Translations under genes and position numbers: made by a program
Shown: positions 1,684-33,063 of the stretch, piece by piece
Position numbering within the stretch: position 1 is the first letter of the stretch
Layout of the letters: every line of letters starts with the position of its first letter
DNA from: Candidatus Micrarchaeota archaeon CG1_02_49_24
Lineage (GTDB): Archaea; Micrarchaeota; Micrarchaeia; Anstonellales; UBA8471
Length of the DNA: 33,063 nt
Assembly (NCBI GenBank): GCA_001871535.1
Contig: MNVF01000038.1
Coordinates: 1 to 33,063 of the forward strand
Direction: 5' to 3'
The notes under the pieces: generated by a model
The model's database searches: none
Told to the model about the DNA's origin: nothing
Seen by the model: the letters and a program-made list of their open reading frames with translations, nothing else

Positions 1684-3249
1684 CTACAAAAACCTTGTCA
1701 AATCAACCTTCGGGAAAACCGCTTTCCCGAAGTTCTTGCCATTCGCCTTCAACGGGGCAGTGCAGTCAAACCCGCATTTTGCGGTGAAGCACGTTCCGGG
1801 CTCGGCGCTCGGGTCCAGGCTTGAGCCTTTTTCCCTGGGTTTCATCACAAGGCCAGCGTCTGCCTGGAAGCGCGTTGCCATTGCCCACTCGATATCAAGG
1901 GGGTTGTAGATGTCAATGTCCTTGTCAACTATGAAGACGTGCTTGCAGCTTTTATGGCCTTCGAATGCCGCGGCAACCGCCTTTTTCCCGTCGTCTTCCT
2001 GCCGCTTGTCAATTTTGACTATCGCGTGCAGCCAGGAGCAGCCGCCTGGATTGATGTTCACGTCGAGGCATTTGACACCGGCTTCCTCAACCTTTTTGAA
2101 AATCGTGGGCTCGCGCGGCATGCCCATAATGACCTTGTGCTCAAGCTTGCCGGGCAGCAATGCCTGCCATATCGCATCTTTTCTATGGGTTATTCTTTTT
2201 ATCGTGAGCACCGGCTCCTGCCTTGTTATGTCTGTCGTCTCGGTAAGGTCAACAAACGGCCCTTCTGGGGCTTTTTCGTCAAGCCTGACAGTGCCCTCAA
2301 GTACAAACTCGCAGTCTGCCGGAATCGTGGCGTCAAACGTTTTCGCCCTTACAACCTTCAGCGACTCGAGCGAGTTTGCTATCTCCAGTTCGTTCAGGCC
2401 GAAGTCTACTGAGGTTGCGGCAGCAATAAGCACGTTTGGCGCATTGCCGACGCAGACCGCAACATTGAGCTCCTCGTTCTTTTTCAGCAGCTGGTCAAAG
2501 TGCCTGTCTCTTACGACCCGTATTGAAAATTTGTTCTTCCCTATCTGCATTGCCCTATGGAAATCCACGTTCTGTATGCCATCCTTGTCCCTTGTTATGA
2601 AGACCCCGGAACTTATGTAATTGCCGCCGTCTCCTTCGCAGTGGAAGAGTATGGGCAACTTGTCCAGGTCTATTTCCCCAAACTCCACTTCCTGGCAGGG
2701 CGCGCTTTTCACTTCCTCTGGCTTTGTGGGGTGCTCTATTGCCCGGGTTATCTTGGGGATAAGGCCGCCAGCATGAATACTCCGAGGGCTGAAGCCCTCG
2801 GTTTCTGCTGGGTAAACCTGTTCTGGTAATGTCTGTTGGGCTTCAGGCGAGAACCCAGCAGAAACCGCATAGGTGGGTGCGCTTTTTCCCAGCACTAAAC
2901 TGCTGGGTTTCGAGATATTTCTGAGCGAGTGCTGCGCTTGGGGTTGCCGTATGGCAGCACCAACGCCCGGGCCCAAACACCTATCTGTGCTGGCTCGGGT
3001 CGCTCCGGAATATCTCGGCGCACCCTCTGAGTATTCATCAATGCCGAAATAGGCGGCAACCTGCCCCTTGGTGGCAAAGATGTTTCCTGCAACCCTGAAG
3101 CCCGACCCCGTTATTTTTTCAAAAAGCACAGGCCTTTCGCCAGACCCGTTCAGTATGGCCGAAGCCTCCAATTTTCTTGAAACTGACTTTTTCACCGTTG
3201 TAAGCCGGCCCTGCGCGTCCAGCTTTTCAAGATAGCTGCGAAAACTCAT
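1684..3249 (-). CDS. UbiD-family decarboxylase, probably anhydromevalonate phosphate decarboxylase. It carries a ~91-codon in-frame insertion.
   Basis: The UbiD fold is recognisable over the whole ORF (PVLFEKI..GNIF, SAPCQEV, GNYISSGVFIT, PEGPFVDLTE, GGCSWLHAIV). ATG at 3249 overlaps the ubiX stop as ATGA, whereas the track start at 3258 is GTG. Residues ~75-165 are foreign to the family. Confidence 0.85.
   Translation of the reverse strand: MSFRSYLEKLDAQGRLTTVKKSVSRKLEASAILNGSGERPVLFEKITGSGFRVAGNIFATKGQVAAYFGIDEYSEGAPRYSGATRASTDRCLGPGVGAAIRQPQAQHSLRNISKPSSLVLGKSAPTYAVSAGFSPEAQQTLPEQVYPAETEGFSPRSIHAGGLIPKITRAIEHPTKPEEVKSAPCQEVEFGEIDLDKLPILFHCEGDGGNYISSGVFITRDKDGIQNVDFHRAMQIGKNKFSIRVVRDRHFDQLLKKNEELNVAVCVGNAPNVLIAAATSVDFGLNELEIANSLESLKVVRAKTFDATIPADCEFVLEGTVRLDEKAPEGPFVDLTETTDITRQEPVLTIKRITHRKDAIWQALLPGKLEHKVIMGMPREPTIFKKVEEAGVKCLDVNINPGGCSWLHAIVKIDKRQEDDGKKAVAAAFEGHKSCKHVFIVDKDIDIYNPLDIEWAMATRFQADAGLVMKPREKGSSLDPSAEPGTCFTAKCGFDCTAPLKANGKNFGKAVFPKVDLTRFL
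2764..3036 (+). repeat. Composite hairpin insertion inside the UbiD ORF (antisense to the gene). It contains family-A copy 3.
   Basis: Nested and adjacent inverted repeats account for most of it (a handful of short linker runs are left over). These are ccgagggc-tgaa-gccctcgg (2782-2801), ttctgctgggt/acccagcagaa (2803-2813/2853-2863), gggtgcgc/gcgcaccc (2875-2882/3018-3025), cccagca-ctaaac-tgctggg (2888-2907) and the core at 2911-3017. Confidence 0.8.
2911..3017 (+). repeat. Family-A double-hairpin element, copy 3
   Basis: The layout is cgagatatttctgagcg-a-[gtgctgc N18 gcagcac]-caacg-[cccgggcc N18 ggctcggg]-t-cgctccggaatatctcg. The loops are 2936-2953 and 2974-2991, both 18 nt. Confidence 0.85.
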
Positions 3250-3800
3250 TTGCCCCACCGCCTGAACTTTTCATTTTTAATTCCAAACAAATCCATTATC
3301 TTTCCGGTAATAAACGATTCCAAATCCTTTATAGTTTTGGGTTTATAATAGAACGCCGGAGACAGGGGGAAAACAATTACGCCATAAACCGAAAGGTCGT
3401 ACATGTTCCTCAGGGTAGGTGGGCTTAAAGGCGTTTCCCTGACGCACACCACAAGCCTTTTCCCAGTCTTCAGCATGTTGTCCGCGGCCCTTGAAATCAA
3501 AGTCGAGCAATCCGCCCTCGCAATCTCTGAAATGGTTTTAATTGAAGCCGGAATTACAATCATTCCATCCACCAGAAAGGAAGAGCTTGCAATGGGCGCA
3601 GTCATATCATGATTTGAAAAAACATGTGAAGCCAATTTTTTAATACTCGCAACCGTGCAACTGGTTTCTTCCACAACCAATTTTTCCGCCCAGTCGCTTA
3701 CCACCAGGAAGGTTTCAACCTTTGCCTCTTTCAGGGCATTCAGCAGGTCAATGGCGTAATTCACGCCAGATGCGCCGCAGATGCCGACTATAAGCCTCAA
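3246..3800 (-). CDS. ubiX: Flavin prenyltransferase UbiX (makes prenyl-FMN for the UbiD-family enzyme)
   Basis: The 184-aa ORF has an N-terminal MRLIVGICGASG flavoprotein motif and overall UbiX/Pad1 likeness. It is the first gene of the minus-strand operon. Confidence 0.9.
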   Translation of the reverse strand: MRLIVGICGASGVNYAIDLLNALKEAKVETFLVVSDWAEKLVVEETSCTVASIKKLASHVFSNHDMTAPIASSSFLVDGMIVIPASIKTISEIARADCSTLISRAADNMLKTGKRLVVCVRETPLSPPTLRNMYDLSVYGVIVFPLSPAFYYKPKTIKDLESFITGKIMDLFGIKNEKFRRWGK

Positions 3801-3889
3801 TAACTCACCCTAGAACATCAGATTTTACGAATTGAATGTAAATTATTGAAGTGCTGCCATTTAAAATCGGGGGTTTTGCCAATATAATT

Positions 3890-5113
3890 ATGGAAACTAC
3901 TAGTTCAGGGCAGCTATTCCAGCGCCTCAGGAAACAGGGCTATCACCTAGTGGGAAAACATTCTGCTGTGAAAGCCTGCAAATGGGCAGGCTGCGCACTT
4001 AGGAGAGAGGGCAAGTGCTACAAACACGCTTTTTACGGAATTGAGAGCCATCGCTGCGTCCAGTGCACGCCTGCATTGCAATTCTGCACCCTTTCATGCA
4101 GGTTTTGCTGGAGGATGATGCCCGAAATTTCAAAGCGAGTGCCGTATGAACCTGCACTTATTTGCGGCACCGACGCCCAAGCCCCTATGAAACCGCCCGA
4201 TGGCTTGGGTCGCTTGGAGATTTCGCCAGAGGAGAAATGGCAGAAATTGCCAACGGATTTTGAATGGGATGACGCAGGCACGATTATTGACGGACTGCTT
4301 ATGGGGCAGAAGAAACTTGTTTCCGGCTTTGGCGCATTTGCGGATAAAAAAATGTTCGGCGAAGCATTGGCTCCCAGGCATGCAGCCATAAGCCTTACCG
4401 GCGAGCCTACGATATACCCGCACCTTGGAGAATTGATTTGTGAATTCCATAAAAGGGAGATGACCACCTTCCTCGTGACAAATGGCACGCTACCTCAACA
4501 AATCCGAAAACTGGAAGCTGAAAAGCGCCTGCCCACCCAATTATATGTTTCAATGGTAGCCCCTGATGAGAAGACATACCTTCAGACCGCGCAAACCGAG
4601 GACAAACGGCTATGGAAAAACTATCTGGAAACATTGGAAATTTTGAAGGGAATTGGAAAATGTCACAGGACTGCGCTCAGGATGACGCTGGTGAAAAGAT
4701 TGAATGCAGGAACCCGAAACACACAACCCGAAACCCTGACATGTTGGAGCGAGCGCTCCGAGACGGCACTTATGGCAGGAGCGCCGACGCCCGAGCCACA
4801 GGACAATTCCATGAAGGCTCGGGTCGCTCCGACATGTCACCGAAACTGCATTGACGGTTATGCCAAGCAGATTGAGCTTGCCAAACCATGGTATGTGGAA
4901 GTGAAAAGCTTCGTTTATGTCGGAGGGGCAAGGAAGGAGGAGCGGGGCCTGTGCTTAAACGACATGCTCATGATGGAGGAGGTAAGGGAATTTGCAAAAC
5001 TGCTCGCTGAAAAAACAGGCTACATTATCGCGGCCGAGCATGCGCCCAGCAGGGTGGTGCTCCTGTGCAGGAATGAAAACGCAGCAGAAGGCAGGATAAT
5101 AAAACATGCCTGA
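3890..5113 (+). CDS. taw1: tRNA 4-demethylwyosine synthase Tyw1/Taw1 (radical SAM). It carries two in-frame insertions.
   Basis: Motifs seen are HSAVKACKW, the radical-SAM CTLSCRFCWR, SLTGEPT, FLVTNGT, LYVS and VEVKSFVYVGGAR. ATG at 3890 fits the family N-terminus, whereas the track start at 3851 is GTG. Confidence 0.85.
   Translation: METTSSGQLFQRLRKQGYHLVGKHSAVKACKWAGCALRREGKCYKHAFYGIESHRCVQCTPALQFCTLSCRFCWRMMPEISKRVPYEPALICGTDAQAPMKPPDGLGRLEISPEEKWQKLPTDFEWDDAGTIIDGLLMGQKKLVSGFGAFADKKMFGEALAPRHAAISLTGEPTIYPHLGELICEFHKREMTTFLVTNGTLPQQIRKLEAEKRLPTQLYVSMVAPDEKTYLQTAQTEDKRLWKNYLETLEILKGIGKCHRTALRMTLVKRLNAGTRNTQPETLTCWSERSETALMAGAPTPEPQDNSMKARVAPTCHRNCIDGYAKQIELAKPWYVEVKSFVYVGGARKEERGLCLNDMLMMEEVREFAKLLAEKTGYIIAAEHAPSRVVLLCRNENAAEGRIIKHA
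4124..4224 (+). repeat. Family-A double-hairpin element, copy 1 (inside Tyw1, sense orientation)
   Basis: The layout is gaaatttcaaagcg-a-[gtgccgt N18 gcggcac]-cgacg-[cccaagcc N18 ggcttggg]-t-cgcttggagatttc. The loops are 4146-4163 and 4184-4201. Confidence 0.85.
4703..4852 (+). repeat. 150-nt insertion inside Tyw1 containing family-A copy 2 (core 4738-4838)
   Basis: The outer clamp is aatgcag/ctgcatt (4703-4709/4846-4852). The core is gacatgttggagcg-a-[gcgctcc N18 ggagcgc]-cgacg-[cccgagcc N18 ggctcggg]-t-cgctccgacatgtc. The 5' arm carries aacccgaaac twice. Confidence 0.85.
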
Positions 5114-10854: not shown

Positions 10855-11110
10855 GAAAATCCCTCTAACAGTTGCGGGTTCCGGGTTGCGAGTTTCGGGC
10901 ACTGAATACGTAACTCGGAACTCATCGACCCGAAGGGGAGAGCTATTCGCCGGCAGGCGATCAACAGCTATTGCTGTTGAGAATTTCTCCAACTGGAGAA
11001 ATGCCAGCAGACGAATTCAAAAACCCGAAACCCGAAACTCTTATCAGCTGCCAATTGGATTTCGCTTGATAGCGAAAAGCTCGCAACATAGAAGATGTCG
11101 ACCACCTTGC
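10855..11110. repeat. Tetraloop mini-hairpin array (family B) in the intergenic leader
   Basis: Hairpins seen are tcaacagc-tatt-gctgttga (10961-10980), atttctcc-aact-ggagaaat (10983-11002) and tttcgct-tgat-agcgaaa (~11061-11078). The words acccgaaac and gagtttcggg occur in inverted copies. Confidence 0.7.
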
Positions 11111-13204
11111 CTACGTTGCGATTACTTTTGCGAACTCGCAGGCGCTGAAATAAGTGTCATCGCCCTGGAGCGTGACCTCCTGGACATACACGTTGCTGTA
11201 GCTGGCAGCATTCCTGGTTGAGTATTTGAGCGAGACAATGGGCATATTGGCAAGCTGCAAGATGCAACTTGTGCCATTGAGCGTCTCATTGCCTACTGCG
11301 CAGGAGCTGCCTGAGTCATAGACGAGAAAAACCGTCTTGTTCCTGGCCACCAGGGATGCCTTTATGCTGCTGACACAGGCAAGCATGGGGTCTGAAAGAT
11401 GAGTGGTATCCACCCGCACGAGGGTGGAATTGCTGTTCTCCAGGGCCGCATAGAATGAGGAGAATGTGCCATTGTCAGCACCGCTGCCCACCAGCCAGTA
11501 GATGCCGCCGGAAAGCACGATGGCCCCGATTATGCCGGCTGCGAACAGCAGACCCCAGACCACATAGACGAACTTTTTGGCGAACCTCTTCCTGAAATAG
11601 ACAAGGCCGCCCAGGAAAATCAGCACTGCCACGGATATGAGCGCAAGGTCGAACACGCCGACCAGCACAGGCAAGCCTATGCGGATGGATGTTTCCCTGT
11701 CACCCAGGTTAATGCGCTCGTTGAACATCGAGGCTGCGCCGAGAATCGGGTAGGAGAGCTTTTCTGAAAGCGCAGATGGCGCATTAGCCAGGCTTCCTGA
11801 AGAGCGTTGGAGATAAACATCATAGCCTGCTGCAAGCTGCTTGTATTCCGCCTCCAGCACGCCATATTCCTCATTGGTAAGCGGAGGGGCGAATTCAGAG
11901 GATAGCTTGAAATATTTCCTTGAAAGATTCGCATATTCGGAAAGCAGGGCTGAATTATTTCCAACGCTCTGCCACTGGGCACGGAGGTCTTTCCCATAAA
12001 TTGATTTGTTAGCCAGGGAAACTTTTTCGTAGGGCACGGTAAGGTTCGCATAGGATTCGCTCATGAGATAGAGTGTGTCCTCAAGCTCGTCTATGTCCTG
12101 GGGGATTAGGGAATATTTGCCATTCTTCATTTTTGCATCTATGGTGGTCTTGATATTCAGGTAGTTCTCATAAATTCCTGCTAACGCCTCGTCGCTGACC
12201 ACATTCCGGGAATCTGCGGCAAGCCTTGTCAGGTTGCCGTATTTTGCCTCGAGCGCTGAGACCCGGCTTCCATAGAGGCCGGTGTAATGCTGCTTCTCCT
12301 TGAATTTGATTCTGCCCTCGCTGCCTGCAAGCAAGGCAGTTACCCGGGCATCCAAATCGGCAAGGCTGGCAGTTTTGTCAATGAGGAACTGCACCTGGCT
12401 GAGCGCGGCATTCACAGAGCTCGCATTGTTTGTGGGTGAGGGGCAAAAACCAATGCAATCAGAACAGGATTCGCCCAGGGCTGGCAGCCGCAGCGGCGTC
12501 TGGCGCACGCCGGCATCATATTGCTTTACCTTGCCCAGCCTGGCCTGGATATCAGTAAGCTGGCTGTTGACATTGTTGGGTGTCAATGTATCAAGGTCGG
12601 AAAAGATGCCCTTGATGTTGTCATCAAGGCCCTTTAGATTAGTGCTATAAGAGATAAAGGGCGCAACGAAGCCAGACGGGTCGCAACTGCCTGCACCATA
12701 GCGATTGCATATCATCTGCGCCACCACGAGGCATGTGGTCTGGTCAAGGCAGAATCCATCCGGGCTCATGCCTGTCTTAAGCTGGGTCCTGCAGACCTCC
12801 TCGGATTTGCCATAAGGCGTCTTGAAATTCCTGCTGTCGTTGTATGCATCTACGGTATCCCTAAGCTGCTGAAACTCAAGTTGGGAAGGATAATATTCGG
12901 ACAGGTAGCTCTGGCGCAGGATGGCACCCACAAGGGCAGTATCGTCCAGTTTATCATTGCCCCTGAGGACAAAGGTGTTCACGCCCCTGATGGAAACCAC
13001 CTGATAGGCGATGTTGTTATAGGTCACGCTGTCTGTGCGGATATCTGCTACACTCTCATTAGGGTAGAGATAGCTGGTATAGTCAAATGCAAATAAGGAT
13101 GCTGAAAGAAGCAAAACTGCAAACAATAGTGGCAAATACCTGGGATACCTGAGGGTCGCCTCTTGAATCAACCTGTTGGTCGATTGAATGTCCCTTTGGG
13201 ACAT
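11111..13204 (-). CDS. Large membrane protein with an N-terminal extracytoplasmic domain and C-terminal TM helices (hypothetical)
   Basis: It has a signal-like segment (YLPLLFAVLLLSASLFA), many N-x-S/T sequons and two C-terminal TM helices. The start was set at ATG 13204 because the track start at 13363 reads through the hairpin array. Start remains uncertain. Confidence 0.65.
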   Translation of the reverse strand: MSQRDIQSTNRLIQEATLRYPRYLPLLFAVLLLSASLFAFDYTSYLYPNESVADIRTDSVTYNNIAYQVVSIRGVNTFVLRGNDKLDDTALVGAILRQSYLSEYYPSQLEFQQLRDTVDAYNDSRNFKTPYGKSEEVCRTQLKTGMSPDGFCLDQTTCLVVAQMICNRYGAGSCDPSGFVAPFISYSTNLKGLDDNIKGIFSDLDTLTPNNVNSQLTDIQARLGKVKQYDAGVRQTPLRLPALGESCSDCIGFCPSPTNNASSVNAALSQVQFLIDKTASLADLDARVTALLAGSEGRIKFKEKQHYTGLYGSRVSALEAKYGNLTRLAADSRNVVSDEALAGIYENYLNIKTTIDAKMKNGKYSLIPQDIDELEDTLYLMSESYANLTVPYEKVSLANKSIYGKDLRAQWQSVGNNSALLSEYANLSRKYFKLSSEFAPPLTNEEYGVLEAEYKQLAAGYDVYLQRSSGSLANAPSALSEKLSYPILGAASMFNERINLGDRETSIRIGLPVLVGVFDLALISVAVLIFLGGLVYFRKRFAKKFVYVVWGLLFAAGIIGAIVLSGGIYWLVGSGADNGTFSSFYAALENSNSTLVRVDTTHLSDPMLACVSSIKASLVARNKTVFLVYDSGSSCAVGNETLNGTSCILQLANMPIVSLKYSTRNAASYSNVYVQEVTLQGDDTYFSACEFAKVIAT

Positions 13205-16450: not shown

Positions 16451-16614
16451 TTCCTCTCCCCGTAAGTCTTCATGTTGATGAAACTGAAGAGAGCTTCGCT
16501 GCTCACGCATGCATGCTCTCATTCTGTTTGAATGCACCTGCGGATGCATAGCTCGGCGACTGTTGTCACCGATTCCCCAAGCCCCTTCACTTCCTCTCCC
16601 CGTAAGTCTTCATG
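16451..16614. repeat. 24-nt perfect direct repeat (16451-16474 and 16591-16614) flanking a 116-nt hairpin-rich insertion at the 3' end of the Cdc48-like gene
   Basis: ttcctctccccgtaagtcttcatg occurs twice, 140 nt apart. Both copies encode ...MKTYGERK followed by a stop (TGA at 16587, TAG at 16447). Confidence 0.8.
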
Positions 16615-19600
16615 AATGCATAATAAGCCTGCAACATCTCTAAGGAAATGGATGGCCGCCTGCCCTTTATCACTGCAAATATCTCTGCCATTGAGAGATG
16701 CGGTTCAATGCCCCTCAGCTTTTTCTTCACCATCTCAAGCTTGACCCCCTGGCAGATTGAGGTGATGTCTGCCGCCGAGAAGCCCTCAGTCAGCCTGCTG
16801 AGCTCATCATAATCAATGACTGCCCCTGCCGCCACACCCTCAAGGTTTCTCTGGAAGATGTTGGCCCGTGCTTTCAGGTCAGGCGGTGGGATGAACACTA
16901 TCTTGTCAAACCTGCCGGGCCTCATGAGCGCAGGGTCGAGAATCTCCGGCTTGTTGGTGGCGCCTATGAGAAGCACGTTCTTGAGCTCCCGGACCCCGTC
17001 AAGCTCGGAGAGCAGCTGGCCGACAAGGCCGCCATCTGAGAGCTCACGGGAGGGCGCCACAGTCTCAATCTCGTCTATGAATATGATGGCAGGCGCCTGC
17101 TCCTTGGCGCGGTTGAATGTTTCTTTCAGCACCCGGATGCTGTTGGCATAGCCCTTTTTGAGCAGCTCGGCACCTGAGAGAAACTGGAAGGTGGCCTTCA
17201 ACTCATTGGCGGCAGCCTTGACTATGAATGTTTTGCCGCACCCTGGAGGTCCGAATAGGAGCATGCCCTTGTAGGGCTTGACCTTGTACTGCTCCATCAA
17301 GTCCTCGTGGAGAAGCGGCAGCTCGATGGCATCCAGGAGAATGGTCTTCACCTCATCCAGGCCGACCACGTCTGCCCATCTCACAGCATCCTCTTTTTTC
17401 TTTTCCACCTGGCGGCCGACTCTCCTTTCGAAATCAAGCCGGAACTGCTCGTATTCCTCGAGCTGCTCCAGGCCGACGCTGGGCCTGACGTTGTCCAGCA
17501 CCCGCAGGAGGTGCTCCATGGTGATGGGCAGGATTTTGTTCTGCTTTGACGCGTCGGCGGCTGCAAACCGCGCGGCTTCCCTGCACACATTGGCTATATC
17601 AGCGCCCGAGAACCTGTCGGTTTTCTTTGCCAGGAGGCCAAGGTCGATATTTGCCGTTGGAAGCTTGCTCAGCTGCACCTTGAAAATGTCCTTTCTTCCT
17701 TCGGGGTCAGGCAGCTTCATATAGATGATTTTGTCGAACCTGCCGGGCCTGAGAAGGGCGGCATCAAGCATATTGGGGACGTTGGTGGTGCCTATGACCA
17801 TCACGGGCTTGGTTGCGCCCTTGTAGCCGTCAAGCTCTGTGAGAAAAACGGACATTACCCTGGGCGCCACGTCGTCTGCGCTGTAAAGCTCGCGCTTTTT
17901 CCCAATGGAATCAATCTCGTCAAAGAAAAGGATGGAGGGCGCGTTTTCCCTGGCGACCTTGAAAATTTCCGCGACATTTTTCTCGCTGTTGTGGGCAAAG
18001 ATGCCGCCGAACCCGCCAGCGAAATTCTGGCAGGGCTCAACTGAGATATCGTAAACGAATTCCTCATCGGCAACCTGCCTTATTTCCTCAACCCTGTCCC
18101 AATAGATGTCGCCATTGACCACTTTTTCAAGGCTGGTGGATGATGCACCAAGCTTTGTATGTTTCATCAGAAGAATTTGCCTGCCTATGGTTGCCGAGCC
18201 TGCCTCAGAATATTTCTTAAGGTTCCGGAAGACCCATTCCTTCAGCTCGCCGGAGAGCGGTATCTGCACATCGCGGTGCCAGGAACCGGCCTCAAGCGCG
18301 CATTCATACCGCTTGTTCCGCATATCATCCAGAAATCCTATCTGCCCAAAACCCCGGAAGGGTTCGCCGGTCAGGAAAATGCGATACATAAGGGCGCCGC
18401 TCCATTCCATTTTTTCACGCACAGTGGCAACGATGCCGAAATACAATAATAGATATAGAAGCTGGCTGGCAAGGGTTTTGCTGGCAGTGCAGGCCTCGAC
18501 AGTGCCAATTCCTTTCTGATTTTCATAAACCGTGCCATCGCCAGAGAAATAGCCCCTGAGAAAGGCGGCAAGCCTCAGCCTGTCAAGCGAGAACACGGCA
18601 ACTGGCGCCTTCTTCCTCTCAGCACCATGCTCAAGCCCAAGGAAATGCCTCATGAAAACATAAAGCACCCTACCTGGGATATATATGTCGCGGCCCCTGC
18701 CGACGCCACGAAAGTTTTCAGTTTTGGAGTTTCCAGTCTGGGAGTTTTGACTCTCTTCCCTTTCTTCTCCCGAGGGTCTTCTTTCTGGGAAAGAAGAGGC
18801 TCTTTTCTTTTCATAGATGATTATTTTGCCGAAAAGCTTTGCGCATAGTTCGGCAATCTTTCCGAGCTGGCAGTCAGAGGTGCTTACCCTGACCGTGTCT
18901 TCCCGAGTGTAGCTGCCCTCTGCAACCCACAGGCCGAGAAAGAGCGCCAGCTCTCCATCAAGCTTGATTATGCCCGGCAGGCCTTTGCAGGCGCCCTTTC
19001 CTGTGCAGACCAGGATTTTACTGCTGTCATATGAAATGCCGGTGCGCTCCATGAGTGCAATGAACCTGCCGGCCGGCAGTGAAATTTCCTTTTCCCTTGA
19101 CAGAATGTATTTCAAGTATTTGGTATTTTTTAGGCCGAGAAGGATATGTGTTTCGTTTGCGCCGATTTTTTCAACAGCAAGTTTTACGTAATCTCTGACT
19201 CGAGTTACCCTAAGGCCATAATCCGCATGTTTCAGGCTGCCGAGAAAATCAAGCTGCCCAACAGGTGCACTGGGAAACTCGACTCTGGAGGGGATTGCGA
19301 TGTATGAAAAACCCGCCTTGAGTTTTGAGGTTTCAATGCTCTTCACTGAGCTGCCGTCTATAGTGAATAGGGAATGATAACCGGTAACGCGAATTCTGCG
19401 GCCGCTCCTCGTGCGCACTTCGTAAATGGGGGATGTGCATTTGTGTTTTATGTGGCCGGCGATTTCGGCAAACACGGCTTTCCCTTTTTCGTCGAAGCTC
19501 AGAACTTTGGCATCCCTCCTTTGCTCAACAATTTCTCCAATCTTTGCAAGCTTTACCGCACCGTTTTCCATTATCATGATTTCCTCATCGTATGGCAGGC

Positions 19601-20912
19601 TTTCGCCGTACCATTGAGATAAAAGCTCTGAAGTTTTCACATTGTAGAAGCCATAGCTCATCTCCTTTGAGAGAGCGCGCATCAGCATGGTTTTGCCTGT
19701 TCCGGGCGGGCCGAAAAGAAGCACGCCGCTGGGCGGCTTTATGCCGTAGGTGAAGCTCAATTCCTTGTGAAGGAGCGGTGTGATGATTGCCTCGCGCAAC
19801 TCTGCCTTCACGTCATTGTAGTTGCCCACATCATCAAGGGATTTTTCAGCCGTTGACTCTGCCATGTCCTGGACGCCGAACTTGCCGAACTTCTTTGTCT
19901 TCCGCCTGCGCTCAATCAGGCGCTCCCTGCTAAGGTCAACACCGCAGAAGTCAAGCAGGGCCACAATGGCAATCGAGATTACTATATATATAACAGAAAC
20001 CGCAGAGAACATGAACGGCACGCCAAATGCGCTCAGCAAAAGATTGGCCGCAGGCACTCCTAAGAGGGAGAGCGCACCCACGGTCTGCTTCCAATTGCTC
20101 TTTATATTGCCAGGCAGCCAGCCTGCAAGGAACAGGATTGCCCCCCAAAGAAAAATGTGGAGAAGGCCTGAGTCGGCAATGAACAGCTTAAGCATATTGT
20201 CAGCAATTTTCCCCAGCGATGGGGTAATCTGCTTCAATATTATGTCATAGGAGAAAATTGAAACCACAGATGCGGCTGCCTTGGATGGGAGTTCCAGCAG
20301 GCCCACCTCTTCCCTGATGTCATGCTGGAGCGCATCAATCTTCGGGGTGAACTGGCCCAGGTTTGTGATAGGCATGAAGGCGCTGTTCTGCACTATCCAG
20401 AGCGAGGACAGGAGAAGGATTAAACAGACAGCCGGGATGGAAATCACAATACTCCGCTGGGAGCCGGTGCGGAAAGCCCCGAGCACCATGAGCAACGGCA
20501 CAAACCCGGAAAGCAGCGAAAATGGCAATGGCGCAAACGGCGCGCACACGATTATTTCAAGGAATGCAATGACATCCCAGTCTTCATGCATCTGGAATAG
20601 GACAAGGGAGATAATTAGCATAAACGGCCATACGAATAGCGGCGCCTGATAGGAGAGGGCAGGAATTGCGAATATTATGCCCATGATTATGCCAACCTGG
20701 GGAAACCTGTAGGCAGCCAGGCCGCAGGCGAGCGCAAGCAAAAATGAGATGTAAATAGGATAGAACTGGAAAAGCACGAGAAGATAGAGCGCGCCCAGGA
20801 AAATCAGCACAGCATTGCCGAGCTCCTTGTTCTCCTGAAGGGATTGTAGCGTTGCCCTGACCTTCTGCTCGGACATGGTTGCGGATTTCAGTTGTTGTGT
20901 TGAAGCGCTCAC
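16587..20912 (-). CDS. Membrane-anchored double-AAA+ ATPase (Cdc48/VCP-like D1+D2) interrupted by an intein
   Basis: About 330 N-terminal residues form multiple TM helices. D1 has Walker A GPPGTGKT and Walker B ILFFDEIDS. D2 has GPPGCGKT and IIFIDEIET. SRH-like and arginine-finger regions follow each domain. Confidence 0.85.
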   Translation of the reverse strand: MSASTQQLKSATMSEQKVRATLQSLQENKELGNAVLIFLGALYLLVLFQFYPIYISFLLALACGLAAYRFPQVGIIMGIIFAIPALSYQAPLFVWPFMLIISLVLFQMHEDWDVIAFLEIIVCAPFAPLPFSLLSGFVPLLMVLGAFRTGSQRSIVISIPAVCLILLLSSLWIVQNSAFMPITNLGQFTPKIDALQHDIREEVGLLELPSKAAASVVSIFSYDIILKQITPSLGKIADNMLKLFIADSGLLHIFLWGAILFLAGWLPGNIKSNWKQTVGALSLLGVPAANLLLSAFGVPFMFSAVSVIYIVISIAIVALLDFCGVDLSRERLIERRRKTKKFGKFGVQDMAESTAEKSLDDVGNYNDVKAELREAIITPLLHKELSFTYGIKPPSGVLLFGPPGTGKTMLMRALSKEMSYGFYNVKTSELLSQWYGESLPYDEEIMIMENGAVKLAKIGEIVEQRRDAKVLSFDEKGKAVFAEIAGHIKHKCTSPIYEVRTRSGRRIRVTGYHSLFTIDGSSVKSIETSKLKAGFSYIAIPSRVEFPSAPVGQLDFLGSLKHADYGLRVTRVRDYVKLAVEKIGANETHILLGLKNTKYLKYILSREKEISLPAGRFIALMERTGISYDSSKILVCTGKGACKGLPGIIKLDGELALFLGLWVAEGSYTREDTVRVSTSDCQLGKIAELCAKLFGKIIIYEKKRASSFPERRPSGEEREESQNSQTGNSKTENFRGVGRGRDIYIPGRVLYVFMRHFLGLEHGAERKKAPVAVFSLDRLRLAAFLRGYFSGDGTVYENQKGIGTVEACTASKTLASQLLYLLLYFGIVATVREKMEWSGALMYRIFLTGEPFRGFGQIGFLDDMRNKRYECALEAGSWHRDVQIPLSGELKEWVFRNLKKYSEAGSATIGRQILLMKHTKLGASSTSLEKVVNGDIYWDRVEEIRQVADEEFVYDISVEPCQNFAGGFGGIFAHNSEKNVAEIFKVARENAPSILFFDEIDSIGKKRELYSADDVAPRVMSVFLTELDGYKGATKPVMVIGTTNVPNMLDAALLRPGRFDKIIYMKLPDPEGRKDIFKVQLSKLPTANIDLGLLAKKTDRFSGADIANVCREAARFAAADASKQNKILPITMEHLLRVLDNVRPSVGLEQLEEYEQFRLDFERRVGRQVEKKKEDAVRWADVVGLDEVKTILLDAIELPLLHEDLMEQYKVKPYKGMLLFGPPGCGKTFIVKAAANELKATFQFLSGAELLKKGYANSIRVLKETFNRAKEQAPAIIFIDEIETVAPSRELSDGGLVGQLLSELDGVRELKNVLLIGATNKPEILDPALMRPGRFDKIVFIPPPDLKARANIFQRNLEGVAAGAVIDYDELSRLTEGFSAADITSICQGVKLEMVKKKLRGIEPHLSMAEIFAVIKGRRPSISLEMLQAYYAFMKTYGERK
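17988..19601 (-). mobile_element. 538-aa intein with a LAGLIDADG homing-endonuclease domain, inserted in AAA+ D1 between Walker A and Walker B
   Basis: The host junction is WYGE|S...FAHN|SEKNV, which restores the canonical GESEKNV. Block B is RVTGYHSLF. The two LAGLIDADG motifs are LALFLGLWVAEGS and LAAFLRGYFSGDGT. The C-terminal block is VYDISVEP..NFAGG..IFAHN followed by Ser+1. Confidence 0.85.
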
Positions 20913-20959: not shown

Positions 20960-21290
20960 GGACTAGATTCACAGGTATCAGATTTTACGAAGAGCCCATC
21001 GAGCAGACTTTGTCTGTTTGAGCTATCGCGCAACAGCACGATTCAATCGGCGGCAGCAGTCGGCGAGATTTTCACCCGCAGGTGAAAAGCCAGCAGGCAA
21101 TCGGCGGCAGCAGTCGCCGAGCTATGCACCATCTGGTGCATTCAACTGTCAGCAAGGCTGACAGTACACAGATTGAGCCTGTTTGAATCGACCTGTTGGT
21201 TGATCAGATTTTCCGAAGAGCCTCTCTCGCTGATGCGAGAGACCCTGCACAATGTGCAGGGTATGAAGGCTCATTCGGAAAATCTGATAA
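20960..21290. repeat. Hairpin-dense divergent intergenic region (families B and C)
   Basis: Hairpins seen are cagac-ttt-gtctg (21004-21016), ttttcacc-cgca-ggtgaaaa (21069-21088), tgcacc-atct-ggtgca (21125-21140), ctgtcag-caagg-ctgacag (21146-21164) and tcgacc-tgtt-ggttga (21188-21203). The direct repeat caatcggcggcagcagtcg recurs 55 nt apart. Confidence 0.75.
21203..21281 (+). repeat. 79-nt perfect repeat, copy A (family-C three-way-junction element)
   Basis: It is identical to 32919-32997. The fold is cagattttccgaagagcc-[tctctcgc tgat gcgagaga]-[ccctgcac aatg tgcaggg]-tatgaa-ggctcattcggaaaatctg. The closing stem extends to 21287 in this copy. Confidence 0.9.
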
Positions 21291-21467
21291 TATAGATAAC
21301 ATAACCCCACGTAACTATTTGCACATCCAATTTAAATTTTGCACCCCAGTTGTACAACCATGCAGTTCCTTGCATATTCACTCAGCAGCCTTCCCTTTCT
21401 TTATCCCCTCCAGCAATCATCGCGCAGCAGCGCCACCACAAGCTTCTACCTGGATGACGCCACCAAG

Positions 21468-22613
21468 ATGGCAATCCTTATCATAGTTTTCTCAGCCGGA
21501 TTCATAGCCCTCCTCTACCTCATGAAAAAAACCAGCGCGAAAAAGACGAAATATCTCACCAGCGTAGACACCCAGAGGCTGCCGGGCGAAGGCGCCCATG
21601 TGGGCCGAATCGCAGAGCAGAGCTTGAGTGCCTACCTGCCCTTTGACAAGCTCACCATGCATTCCCTGGTGGCAGGCGCCACTGGTTCAGGCAAGACCGT
21701 TGCTGCCCAGGTAGTTGCCGAGGAGGCGCTCCTGAACAAGGTGAGCATACTCGTGTTTGACCCAACGGCGCAATGGACAGGCTTCCTCAGGAAGCAGGCT
21801 ATAAGCGATATGCTGAAACGGTATGCGCGGTTTGGCCTGCAAAAGAGCGATGCGCGTGCATTCGACGGCAACATCTACCTAGTGGAAAATTCCGAAACGT
21901 TCCAGATAAACGTGAAAAAATACATGATGCCCGGAGAGATAAACGTATTCGTGCTGAACAGGCTGAAGCCCCAGGAGATGGAAATCATTGTTACCCGCGT
22001 GATTAAGGCGGTATTCGAGGCGAACCTGGAGGAATACAGGGGGCTGCGGCTGCTCATTGTGTTTGACGAGGTGCACAGGCTGCTTCCGAAGTTCGGGGGG
22101 ACTGGTGAAGGGTTTAAGCAGATAGAACGCGCGGTCCGCGAGTTCAGGAAATGGGGCGTTGGGATGGTGCTTGTCTCCCAGGTGCTGAGCGATTTTGTTG
22201 GTGAAATCAAGGCGAACATTGGCACTGAGATGCAGTTCCGGACGAAATACGAGCAGGATTTGGAGCGCATACGCTACAAATTCGGCCCGGAATCATTGCT
22301 GGGAGTGGTGAAGGCAAATGTCGGCACCGGGCTGATGCACAATTCGGAATACAACAACGGCAATCCCTATTTCGTGGAATTCCGGCCGCTCTTGCACAAT
22401 GTGGTGCGATTGAGCGACAAGGAGCTTGACACTTATAAAAGGTATAATGACAGGATTGTGGCGTTGGAGCAGAGAATTGAGAAAATGAAGGAAGATGGGA
22501 ATGATGTATTTGATTTGAACCTTGAGCTGAACCTGGCAAAAGATAAAATGAAAAAGGGCGCGTTCAACATTGTGGATATTTACCTTGAGAGCCTGGAAGG
22601 GAAGACGGCTTGA
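21468..22613 (+). CDS. Membrane-anchored P-loop NTPase of the HerA/FtsK/VirB4-like (DUF87-type) kind
   Basis: It has an N-terminal TM (MAILIIVFSAGFIALLYL), Walker A (VAGATGSGKT) and Walker B (LLIVFDEVHRL). The start was moved from TTG 21339 to ATG 21468. Confidence 0.65.
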   Translation: MAILIIVFSAGFIALLYLMKKTSAKKTKYLTSVDTQRLPGEGAHVGRIAEQSLSAYLPFDKLTMHSLVAGATGSGKTVAAQVVAEEALLNKVSILVFDPTAQWTGFLRKQAISDMLKRYARFGLQKSDARAFDGNIYLVENSETFQINVKKYMMPGEINVFVLNRLKPQEMEIIVTRVIKAVFEANLEEYRGLRLLIVFDEVHRLLPKFGGTGEGFKQIERAVREFRKWGVGMVLVSQVLSDFVGEIKANIGTEMQFRTKYEQDLERIRYKFGPESLLGVVKANVGTGLMHNSEYNNGNPYFVEFRPLLHNVVRLSDKELDTYKRYNDRIVALEQRIEKMKEDGNDVFDLNLELNLAKDKMKKGAFNIVDIYLESLEGKTA

Positions 22614-22812
22614 AAAGGACCTGCTCTTCCAGGCTGACGATAATGTTCTACTCTTGGTCCATAATGTTCTGGGAAGGCACACGCCACTCTTTCTCTAGTG
22701 CGGTTATCCCAGCCGCCTGCGACATTAGAAACAAATTGGGCAAGATATGTTCCCACAACTTCTTTAGGATCAGGGCGTGTAGTAACTTCCTGTAGTGCAA
22801 CTTTAGCATGAT

Positions 22813-23100
22813 TTCTTATGCCCTCTGGTAATCCATCATCATGGATGGCTTCACGTAACAAATCTGTCCGGCCGATTCCTGCCGCAGCGTCAAGCGCATA
22901 TGTTCTTATGCCCTCTGGTGATCCATCATCATGGATGGCTTCCCTTAACAAATCTGTCCGGCCGATTCCTGCCGCAGCGTCAAGCGCCGTATGCATTTGC
23001 GTTTGCGCATGGTTTCTTATGCCCTCTGGTAATCCATCATCATGGATGGCTTCCCTTAACAAATCTGTCCAGCCTCTTCCTGCCGCAGCGTCAAGCGCAC
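22813..23100 (-). repeat. Three near-identical coding repeat units (offsets 90 and 111 nt) encoding HEAT repeats
   Basis: ttcttatgccctctggt.atccatcatcatggatggcttc...tcctgccgcagcgtcaagcgc starts at 22813, 22903 and 23014. The peptide is LDAAAGIGRTDLLREAIHDDG.PEGIR. Confidence 0.85.
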
Positions 23101-23106
23101 TTTTTA

Positions 23107-23204
23107 GTAAAGTCCCTATCTTGCCAACCACTTCATCTCTATTTCCTCGGAATACAGGGTGTGCACGAGCCCGGTAAAGTCCCTATCTTGCCAACCACTT
23201 CATC
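23107..23204. repeat. 31-nt perfect direct repeat (23107-23137 and 23174-23204) bracketing 36 unique nt
   Basis: gtaaagtccctatcttgccaaccacttcatc occurs twice with a 67-nt offset. Confidence 0.85.
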
Positions 23205-31582: not shown

Positions 31583-32833
31583 TTACAGCTGCGCTTTCTC
31601 CCTTGTCAGATAAAGATAGGCTCCAATTGCCACAGCTGCCAGCACCACCACACCGCCCAGGACAATAGGCAGGGGCATGCCCACGCTTCCTAAATTGCCC
31701 CCTATAATCCCTGGGCTGGTCGAATTCGTATCAAGAATTACCAGCACGGCACTGCCAGCCACCGAATTCCTGTTCCCGGCATTGTCTATCGCATAGACGA
31801 TGTAGCTCAGTGAATCTGCCAGCCCGACATCCAGCTCTGCCTCATAGATAGAATTCGAATCCATGTACATCGTTTCCCTGCCGTGCCTGGAGCCTGACAC
31901 GTAGTCTACATAAACATCGCTGAGCTCGCCCATGCCACTTCCGTAGATACCAGACTCTGCCACCATGGCGCGCACCCGGGCATATCTATCGCCCAGGCGC
32001 TCCACGATTATGTTGCTAATCTCAGGTGGGTGCATATCAAAAAAAATGATAATGTTTGTGCCTTCGCTGAGGTCAGCCCTGGCAGTCTGTTTGAACCCCT
32101 TGGACTGGGCAGTAAACACTGCTGTTGGCCCTACATAATCCTTGAATTTCGCCATACCCAGCTCGTCCGCCTCATCGATGCGGTCGAGGAGGGTGACATA
32201 GCCCTTGACGGGCTCTCCGGTGTCATCCATGAGCTTGACAATCGGGTTATAAACAGGGAAAATAATATCTTCAGAGGTATCGCCCCTGACGGTGATGGAC
32301 TTGACCTGCTGGCCGTTTGAAAAATCAGCTATGATCGTCGTATCGCCAGGGGGCACAAGGAATGCCACATCTCCGTTGGCGTTGGCATAGCCAGTGAAAT
32401 TGCCCGCAGAGACCCTGCTCAAAAGCGGCGCCCTGCGCTGGTCGGTAACCTTTACCTTGAGGAGGTAGAGCTCTGTCTGAATTATTATGGAGGATGGGTG
32501 TTGGTAAACTTCAATCTCTCTCCTTGCACCCTTGTAGCCATAGAGAACCCGGATGGTCACTGTTTTGTCAACTTCGCCCTCCACAATCTCCACATTCTCA
32601 ATGGTGAAACTTGCCATGCCAAGGGCGTCAGATAGCTGGGAAATAGTCTGGAGCCCCCTGAGCGAATCGCGCTGATAGGTCACGAAGACTGTGGCATTCT
32701 GCACAGGCCTGCCAAGCATGTCCACCACCTGCACGGATACATAGTCATTGAAGGTGGAGAAAGCTGCTGGCACTAGGAGAAGCATGAATGCAATTGCAAA
32801 CACTAACATTGGCAAATATCTAGCTATATGCAT
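31583..32833 (-). CDS. Hypothetical surface protein (beta-rich, CarboxypepD_reg-like N-terminal module, C-terminal TM anchor)
   Basis: The signal-like N-terminus is LPMLVFAIAFMLLLVPAAFS. VQVVDMLGRPVQNATVFV resembles Ig-like regulatory domains. The C-terminal anchor is VVVLAAVAIGAYLYL. Confidence 0.6.
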   Translation of the reverse strand: MHIARYLPMLVFAIAFMLLLVPAAFSTFNDYVSVQVVDMLGRPVQNATVFVTYQRDSLRGLQTISQLSDALGMASFTIENVEIVEGEVDKTVTIRVLYGYKGARREIEVYQHPSSIIIQTELYLLKVKVTDQRRAPLLSRVSAGNFTGYANANGDVAFLVPPGDTTIIADFSNGQQVKSITVRGDTSEDIIFPVYNPIVKLMDDTGEPVKGYVTLLDRIDEADELGMAKFKDYVGPTAVFTAQSKGFKQTARADLSEGTNIIIFFDMHPPEISNIIVERLGDRYARVRAMVAESGIYGSGMGELSDVYVDYVSGSRHGRETMYMDSNSIYEAELDVGLADSLSYIVYAIDNAGNRNSVAGSAVLVILDTNSTSPGIIGGNLGSVGMPLPIVLGGVVVLAAVAIGAYLYLTREKAQL

Positions 32834-32918: not shown

Positions 32919-32997
32919 ATCAGATTTTCCGAAGAGCCTCTCTCGCTGATGCGAGAGACCCTGCACAATGTGCAGGGTATGAAGGCTCATTCGGAAA
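32919..32997 (+). repeat. 79-nt perfect repeat, copy B (family-C element)
   Basis: It is identical to 21203-21281 and lies upstream of the 31583..32833 gene. Confidence 0.9.
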
Positions 32998-33063
32998 TCC
33001 AGTTTTCGCTTGATAGCGAAAATCTCAAGGACTGTTGTCCTTGAATTCTCGTGAAGTTGGCGC
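32998..33063. repeat. Further tetraloop hairpins at the window edge
   Basis: These are ttttcgct-tgat-agcgaaaa and aaggac-tgtt-gtcctt. The first is nearly the same hairpin as at ~11061-11078. Confidence 0.6.

Follow-up and report, generated by a model that had tools for sequence, protein, structure and literature searches.

Repeat copies and their setting in the window

Within the window, by which is meant the whole 33,063-nt stretch of DNA that was analysed, a 79-nt sequence occurs twice as a direct repeat, positions 21203-21281 being 100% identical to positions 32919-32997 at a distance of 11.7 kb. Shuffled versions of the window yield not even the 20-nt head with which this repeat begins. 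Copy 1 is located between the divergently oriented Cdc48 and HerA-like genes, upstream of the HerA-like gene and in the same orientation, while copy 2 is located upstream of a surface-protein gene (31583-32833) and in the opposite orientation to it. The perfect repeat and these gene contexts are as they had been described in an initial annotation of the same DNA. Copy 1 ends upstream of a TATA-like ATTTAAATT box at about position 21331. Because it is upstream of the probable HerA promoter, it would lie outside the HerA mRNA. From a reading of the sequence, the 31583-32833 gene has a likely TATA box, and copy 2 is situated ~55 nt beyond it.

The Cdc48-like AAA ATPase (16587-20912, minus strand) contains an intein with a LAGLIDADG homing-endonuclease domain at residues ~447-975. 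An ORF with a ribbon-helix-helix match (22580-23131, minus strand) includes three ~93-nt tandem copies that are 92-94% identical (22806-23099), and just past them (23107-23204) there is a perfect 31-nt direct repeat with its copies 67 nt apart. The length of this gene varies with the contig of the locus, being 223 aa in locus L005 and split in L006.

The fold of copy 1 is a closed three-way junction whose outer stem of 14-15 bp also serves as a terminal inverted repeat of 15-20 nt. Within the junction, GAGCC pairs with GGCUC, and of the two hairpins the first is capped by a UGAU tetraloop and the second is 8-9 bp long. The junction, its stems and the UGAU tetraloop thus agree with the structure first proposed for the repeat; the AAUG tetraloop of that proposal does not, being replaced by an AAU triloop in the minimum-energy fold of the second hairpin. 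As RNA, copy 1 has a fold energy of -57.9 kcal/mol (z = -12.9), and as single-stranded DNA one of -37.5 kcal/mol (z = -11.9). Because all pairs in copy 1 are Watson-Crick, the opposite strand is equally foldable (-57.0). Covariance model R1 scored copy 1 at 46.3 bits. The possibility that the three-way junction is a hammerhead was rejected, the junction strands being without the CUGANGA/GAAA core.

The outer stem is complete in copy 1 only, as had been noted before, and in copy 2 it is broken after TTCGGAAA by a 47-nt insert of two hairpins. Copy 2 is a canonical 197-nt element truncated by the end of the contig. All six of the independent contigs that bear the neighbouring gene of copy 2 stop within the element of copy 2, and it is this failure of assemblers to cross the repeat that puts the end of the window at position 33063. 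An rRNA leader or processing stem was rejected as a cause of the contig break, the related loci having no rRNA or tRNA.

Table 1. Members and fragments of the repeat family in the window
Feature	Position	Strand	Basis or remark
Solitary 15-nt head word ATCAGATTTTACGAA, remnant without element body	3817..3831	+	Shared k-mers, sequence
Decayed headless member with domain-2-like tail (CTCGCAAC...GTTGCGATTA)	10926..11123	+	Shared k-mers; repeat with 33004-33026
Headless family fragment at the Cdc48 stop codon	16475..16590	-	Repeat search, shared k-mers
Module-rich member, head variant ATCAGATTTTACGAAGAGCC then ~7 short hairpin modules	20977..21202	+	Runs directly into copy 1
Copy 1, domain-1-only element (ATCAG...CTGAT)	21203..21289	+	Sequence, fold
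Copy 2, 79-nt domain 1 of a canonical two-domain element	32919..32997	+	Same sequence at 38 distinct sites
Optional 47-nt two-hairpin insert (TCCAGTTTTCGC..GCGAAAA, CAAGGAC..GTCCTTG)	32998..33044	+	Fold; interrupts the outer stem on its 3' strand
Start of domain 2 (ATTCTCGTGAAGTTGGCGC...), ~53 nt missing at the contig end	33045..33063	+	Full copies go on ...TTGGCATTCATCCCCGCCCGAAGGGCGGGGTATTCTGCCAACTTCACGATAA

Other members of the family in the window

Further traces of the family are scattered through the window (Table 1). Two additional head words had been reported, and both are real, at 3817-3831 and at 20977-20996. The latter is a third head, 226 nt upstream of copy 1, and opens a member that is without a closing strand of its own. 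Modules of this member are also present in L085, L017 and other loci, and one of them recurs inverted at 16528-16577.

The headless fragment at the Cdc48 stop codon (116 nt) is flanked by a perfect 24-nt direct repeat (16451-16474 and 16591-16614). Both copies of the 24-nt repeat encode the identical last residues (...MKTYGERK) and a stop codon, and the end of the Cdc48 protein is therefore preserved. No duplication of this kind is found around intact family members.

The window also contains palindromes of ~103 nt (TGACATGTTGGAGCGA...TCGCTCCGACATGTCA, z = -6.5) inside coding genes, at 4737-4839 in Tyw1 (3851-5113, plus strand) and at 2911-3017 in UbiD (1684-3258, minus strand), with possibly another at ~4127-4259. 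When compared with the solved structure 2YX0, the Tyw1 of the window has an insertion of ~45 residues (286-334) that spans the palindrome, much like the Rickettsia palindromic elements. The Tyw1-type palindrome module is nested behind a ATCAGATTTTCCGAAGAGCC head in L034, L090, L101, L103, L107 and L109. Because the contig of the closest relative's HerA locus (L124) ends downstream in GACATGTTGGAGCGA-type palindromes, related species carry these 'family A' palindromes too.

Architecture of the element

The 79-mer is domain 1 of a two-domain element that measures 150 nt, or 197 nt with an insert. In the canonical order the 79-mer is followed by the optional 47-nt two-hairpin insert (TCCAGTTTTCGC...GTCCTTGA), which is present at 38 of the 51 sites with the 79-mer, and then by domain 2, ATTCTCGTGAAGTTGGCGCTTGGCATTCATCCCCGCCCGAAGGGCGGGGTATTCTGCCAACTTCACGATAA. 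An ending after domain 1 alone is rare (3 of 51 sites); copy 1 is among these, with the closing AAAATCTGAT placed right after domain 1.

Across the family, the element starts with an almost invariant head, ATCAGATTTTNCGAA-GAGCC, continues as a variable string of short hairpin modules and has its outer stem closed by GGCTCATTCGN'AAAAT after these modules. Most elements add a second closed domain of the form TCTCG-stem...GGCATTCA-hairpin-GTA...stem'-CGAT(AA). The head and the closing strand are near invariant family-wide, and the interior is a variable chain of ~20-nt hairpins with recurrent loops (GAA, AACA, AGCA and TGAT) plus linkers, so that lengths in the family extend from ~85 to >500 nt. 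The dominant two-domain form (ATCAG...CACGATAA) has unrelated ends and no terminal inverted repeat; inverted termini of 15-20 nt (ATCAGATTTTCCGAAGAGCC...GGCTC(A)TTCGGAAAATCTGAT) occur only in the domain-1-only copies and in tail-to-tail composites of ~520-550 nt.

With the element boundary written as a dash, all units begin A-TCAG and finish (C/Y)GA-T, ends which fit a 2-bp AT duplication and an insertion between A and T alike. No position is conserved among the 12 nt upstream of the head. Downstream, conservation is limited to the 2 nt that follow ...CGAT, which covary with the subfamily. Several upstream genes run into the head and stop at a TGA in the loop of the first hairpin, with a tail such as ...SDFPKSLSR before the stop (L004 2560-2530, minus strand; L108 ~6840; others); in 4-5 cases this stop is 25-31 nt inside the head.

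Copy number, distribution and host

Public collections were scanned for the 20-nt head ATCAGATTTTNCGAAGAGCC, which was found on at least 113 JGI/ENA metagenome contigs, nearly all of them from groundwater samples and often with 2-5 heads per contig. The two copies first noticed are therefore accompanied by many others: the fetched loci contain 131 distinct head sites, as counted by their upstream flanks, with the exact 79-mer at 38 of them and the 79-mer within 3 mismatches at 51. The one-genome-per-species GTDB collection gave four head matches. Two of these are chance occurrences inside coding sequence, and the other two, in Micrarchaeota MAGs (L001 and L004), are elements of clear homology. 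Viral carriage of the family was rejected, as the IMG/VR viral contigs gave 0 head matches.

Heads are within 200 nt of a contig end in 47 of 149 cases. The density of heads, when corrected for ascertainment, is ~0.6-0.9 per 10 kb; for an assumed DPANN genome size of ~1 Mb this therefore corresponds to the order of 100 copies per genome. The host is a groundwater archaeon, probably of the phylum Micrarchaeota (DPANN), because the HerA-like protein has its best named homologue in a Micrarchaeota MAG (58% identity), the two homologous GTDB matches belong to this phylum and the window contains archaeal markers, namely Tyw1, an S-layer protein and the intein-containing Cdc48.

Canonical copies at different sites are ~98% identical and thus point to a recent burst. 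The perfect identity of copy 1 and copy 2 reflects this family-wide burst and not a link between the two loci or their genes. Recent copying, one of the two causes originally offered for the identity, is accordingly retained, and gene conversion between the two loci is set aside. The 79-mer family carries no specific information on either the HerA-like or the surface-protein gene. Full-text literature searches returned no account of the family, which does not by itself prove that none exists.

Covariation and strand bias

The stems of the element covary strongly. In a seed alignment of seven short two-domain members, 18 of 44 pairs show compensatory double changes, and the covariance model built from this alignment gave 113 matches at E < 0.001 in 579 kb. 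Among 85 distinct covariance-model rows, 93.8% of the cells are paired (77% when shuffled), 38 of the 44 pairs change on both sides and the covariation score is 0.268, as compared with 0.092 after shuffling and no more than 0.055 when the partners are slid; because the alignment was fitted to the structure, these numbers lean its way, and some of the matches may be non-homologous hairpins forced in. The cases examined by hand, however, leave no ambiguity. At the variable head base N the pair is C:G, G:C or U:A, and the stem of domain 2 reads TCGCAACGGC/GCCGTTGCGA, TCGTGAAAACGC/GCGTTTTCACGA or TCGCGGAGTG/CACTCCGCGA depending on the subfamily.

The wobble pairs in the stems are biased towards one strand. 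When unique hairpins with a single internal mismatch are counted on the head strand, G.T/T.G exceed A.C/C.A by 17:4 (p = 0.007), with a small number of events (n = 21). Some of these wobbles are kept while adjacent pairs covary, as in TCGATGGC...GCCGTCGA versus TCGATGCC...GGCGTCGA. The excess of wobble pairs on the head strand therefore indicates that the hairpins matter in the single-stranded form of that strand.

Probable mobility and turnover of modules

The ends of the element are sharp and the flanks at different sites are unrelated. One canonical copy interrupts the coding sequence of a TnpB paralogue in its C-terminal part, while the sister copy of this paralogue has no interruption, and the insertion point reads GAGT-AT-GACA when empty and GAGT-ATCAG...CACGAT-AACT when filled. 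This paralogous TnpB is the single filled-versus-empty case that the search for true empty sites produced, and because the comparison is between paralogues the exact ends of the element are uncertain. Members of the repeat family are inserted into TnpA and TnpB copies in L035 and L077. The orthologous HerA locus of the closest relative (L124 1890-2067; 76% protein identity) has no element upstream of HerA, and synteny differs there. No target-site duplication was detected up to 40 nt, the longest word shared by the flanks being no better than that in mismatched controls.

The composition of the element changes in place. When the same locus is compared between samples, clean indels of 42 nt (L015/L117), 47 nt (L041/L105) and ~54 nt (L060/L082) are observed, and the optional insert is present or absent at one locus (L025/L078). 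Such indels consist of whole hairpins, always fall at module boundaries and occur in loci that are identical in both flanks; assembly collapse could partly account for these differences between samples, yet the pattern recurs.

Neighbouring elements that are 0.9-12 kb apart are co-oriented in a ratio of 21:7 (p = 0.0125 with redundant contigs removed), again a small sample of 28 events. With respect to the flanking genes, orientation is random (41:52 in upstream, 36:24 in downstream and 11:7 in tandem contexts).

The two 79-mer copies are therefore best regarded, with a probability of roughly 0.8, as domain 1 of a high-copy, non-coding, non-autonomous family of mobile interspersed repeats. A mobile hairpin module had been one of three suggestions made from the two copies, and it is the one borne out by the occurrence of the 79-mer at 38 or more sites with unrelated flanks, by the TnpB insertion and by the gain and loss of modules at fixed loci.

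Possible mode of spread and candidate enzymes

The elements may spread as discrete DNA units via a strand-specific single-stranded intermediate in which the hairpins are folded. Mobilisation would occur in trans through HUH tyrosine enzymes, in the manner in which REP/BIME sequences are handled by RAYT and PATEs derived from IS200/IS605 are handled. Insertion would take place beside an A/T dinucleotide without target duplication, and the later gain and loss of modules in place would result from nested insertion or from recombination of one copy with another. Trans-mobilisation through folded single-stranded DNA is the preferred mechanism because of the lack of a target-site duplication, the lack of inverted termini, the co-orientation of neighbouring elements and the co-resident IS200/IS605 genes; the 21:7 ratio is the pattern expected from replication-coupled single-strand insertion. 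The single-stranded DNA step is nevertheless put forward tentatively, with the odds leaning somewhat against it.

Genes for IS200/IS605 TnpA (Y1 HUH) and TnpB are found on the same contigs as the elements, and IS200/IS605 elements are present in >65% of Micrarchaeota genomes (PMC13343696). The fetched contigs contain six Y1 TnpA-like ORFs, each of which is either in an IS605-type unit or disrupted by an element, and none is bracketed by the repeats. The IS200/IS605 copies of the fetched loci possess different end hairpins (CCACCCGATAAATCGGGTGG) and ends of the form ...GGTAGTTSAC, as mapped by comparing filled with empty loci (L008 with the window; L084 with L032). An origin of the family from the co-resident IS200/IS605 elements was rejected, since the mapped ends (L008, L035, L046, L049, L069, L084, L101, L103) are unlike the head and the tail. 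The sequence ...ACGATAA, which seemed common to the family and the right end of the L069 TnpB unit, proved to be flank. No tetra- or pentanucleotide target of the kind required by classical IS200/IS605 transposition is conserved 5' of the head.

One of the IS605-type units, consisting of TnpA (~217 aa, NHMHVFV motif) and TnpB, is placed beside a GFO/IDH/MocA-family gene in L008 (from 8625) and is absent in the window. Units of this type (L008 from 8625; L084 1122-3400; empty in L032) have end hairpins CCACCCGAT(A/T)AATCGGGTGG and a right end ...GGTAGTTCAC. Two further candidates for an associated protein were rejected. A 32-member 'protein family' beside the elements consists mostly of spurious ORFs that read through the repeat, merged with real TnpB genes, and the proximity of a small winged-helix protein family to heads is taken to be coincidental, with just 2 of its 4 members adjacent.

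It is also conceivable, if unlikely, that the family represents an undescribed kind of archaeal element made of self-nesting hairpin units, with a strand-specific enzyme (HUH-like or other) and a folded strand that is selected across species. Each unit would then start TC(C)AG, end YGA and be placed after an A, and the selection might be caused by host co-option, for example in the replication or chromosome organisation of a ~1-Mb DPANN genome.

Alternative explanations

The strong covariation of all helices could alternatively mean a cellular role for folded RNA. The family would then be one of structured non-coding RNAs, either small RNA genes or modules in host transcripts, in which selection on the hairpins acts on the RNA, for instance for the protection of transcripts from exonucleases or as processing or terminator signals. 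The enrichment of wobble pairs on one strand and the very stable folds are consistent with such a role, as is the overlap of some copies with the 3' ends of genes, to which they provide the last codons and the stop codon. However, no sequence is conserved upstream of the head and hence there is no shared promoter, the interior of the element is without an AT-rich, TATA-like stretch, and the orientation of the elements is random with respect to flanking genes. No Rfam family matches either, as Rfam 15 gave no hit at gathering score in the window, L001, L004, L005, L006 or L009, and nothing above chance level with permissive thresholds. For these reasons the small RNA gene envisaged in the initial annotation finds no support. 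Copies 1 and 2 are upstream of the probable promoter of HerA and the likely promoter of the 31583-32833 gene, and the near-identity of copies at dozens of sites together with the insertions into IS genes fits a selfish element better than an RNA of the host. Taken jointly, the small RNA and transcript-module versions are rather improbable. The third original suggestion, a regulatory site for the neighbouring genes, is unlikely as well, since copy 1 is upstream of a TATA-like box that is kept in the orthologous, element-free L124.

Two further explanations treat the repeat as mobile or duplicated DNA of a more familiar kind. A classical MITE, as a deletion derivative of a DDE-type insertion sequence that moves by cut-and-paste via terminal inverted repeats, would account for the 15-20 nt inverted termini of domain-1-only copies and tail-to-tail composites, and the AT...AT that bounds every element is potentially a 2-bp duplication; an IS630-like DDE_3 transposase gene is moreover located 27 nt from one head. 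Against this, the inverted termini are absent from the dominant two-domain form and there is no duplication past the possible AT. The IS630-like transposase was rejected as a parent because it occurs at a single locus (L023/L076) and its other end has no matching repeat, and no transposase is bracketed by inverted heads in ~650 kb of fetched element-bearing contigs. Neither the strand bias of the wobble pairs nor the co-orientation of neighbours is expected from double-strand cut-and-paste, and a MITE origin is accordingly held to be quite doubtful. Perfect direct repeats at a spacing of 11.7 kb would also be produced by the att sites of an integrated element, or by a local duplication held identical by gene conversion. 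Yet the interval contains phenylalanyl-tRNA synthetase and ordinary genes but no integrase, the 79-mer is present at 38 sites and another head stands just upstream of copy 1. An att-bounded integrated element was rejected on account of the synthetase inside, the absence of an integrase and the many further copies of the repeat, and the explanation as a whole, duplication included, is extremely improbable.

Comparison with known repeat families

The family of mobile repeats to which the 79-mer is assigned functionally resembles the bacterial REP/BIME and BOX elements and archaeal PATEs, and is a member of none of these by sequence or defining features. The REP/BIME sequences of enterobacteria and pseudomonads, which are mobilised by RAYT, an IS200-like HUH tyrosine transposase, are likewise high-copy intergenic palindromes in mosaic arrays of variable composition; they show no target duplication, their hairpins act single-stranded and some of their units form inverted pairs. 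In contrast, a REP is a single hairpin of 20-40 nt with a GTAG head, whereas the present element measures 85 to >500 nt, begins with a 20-nt head, combines a three-way junction with a second closed domain, and resides in an archaeal host. There is no GTAG before the hairpins of the family, but rather a GTA after them on the head strand, and no RAYT-like gene is flanked by family elements in the fetched contigs.

PATEs, which are non-autonomous derivatives of IS200/IS605 and IS1341, share with the family the lack of inverted termini and of target duplication, hairpins at both ends, strand asymmetry and the presence of IS200/IS605 TnpA and TnpB in the same genomes. Unlike PATEs, the family has ends that differ from those of the local IS200/IS605 elements and no conserved 5' target tetranucleotide. 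The BOX elements of Streptococcus pneumoniae are similarly modular, with internal modules in variable number between a head and a tail, and they have stable folds and ~100 or more intergenic copies. However, there is no sequence relationship, and BOX modules are boxes of 45-60 nt rather than 20-nt hairpins with covarying stems.

MITEs of the Correia, ERIC and RUP type are also small and non-coding, break assemblies and at times lengthen adjacent ORFs, but their termini are inverted and DDE transposases give them TA or other duplications, and the main form of the family has neither feature. The Rickettsia palindromic elements provide an example of selfish palindromes in a reduced genome, and the related 'family A' of the window is in frame in Tyw1 and probably in UbiD; the 79-mer family, in contrast, is found only between genes or overlapping gene ends. 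The family is an architecturally unusual small non-autonomous palindromic repeat in an archaeal phylum with very small genomes.

Significance

DPANN archaea have some of the smallest and most streamlined cellular genomes. The present family indicates that a streamlined lineage still holds on the order of a hundred structured repeats, with related palindromes inside essential genes. The repeats explain the fragmentation of assemblies and bins, about one third of heads being at contig ends, and masking of the family is advised before small RNAs or regulatory motifs are called in these genomes. The covarying stems, the wobble bias, the lack of a target duplication and the co-oriented neighbours make the family a candidate for archaeal single-strand transposition, and its modular interior makes it a natural system in which to study the gain and loss of hairpin modules.
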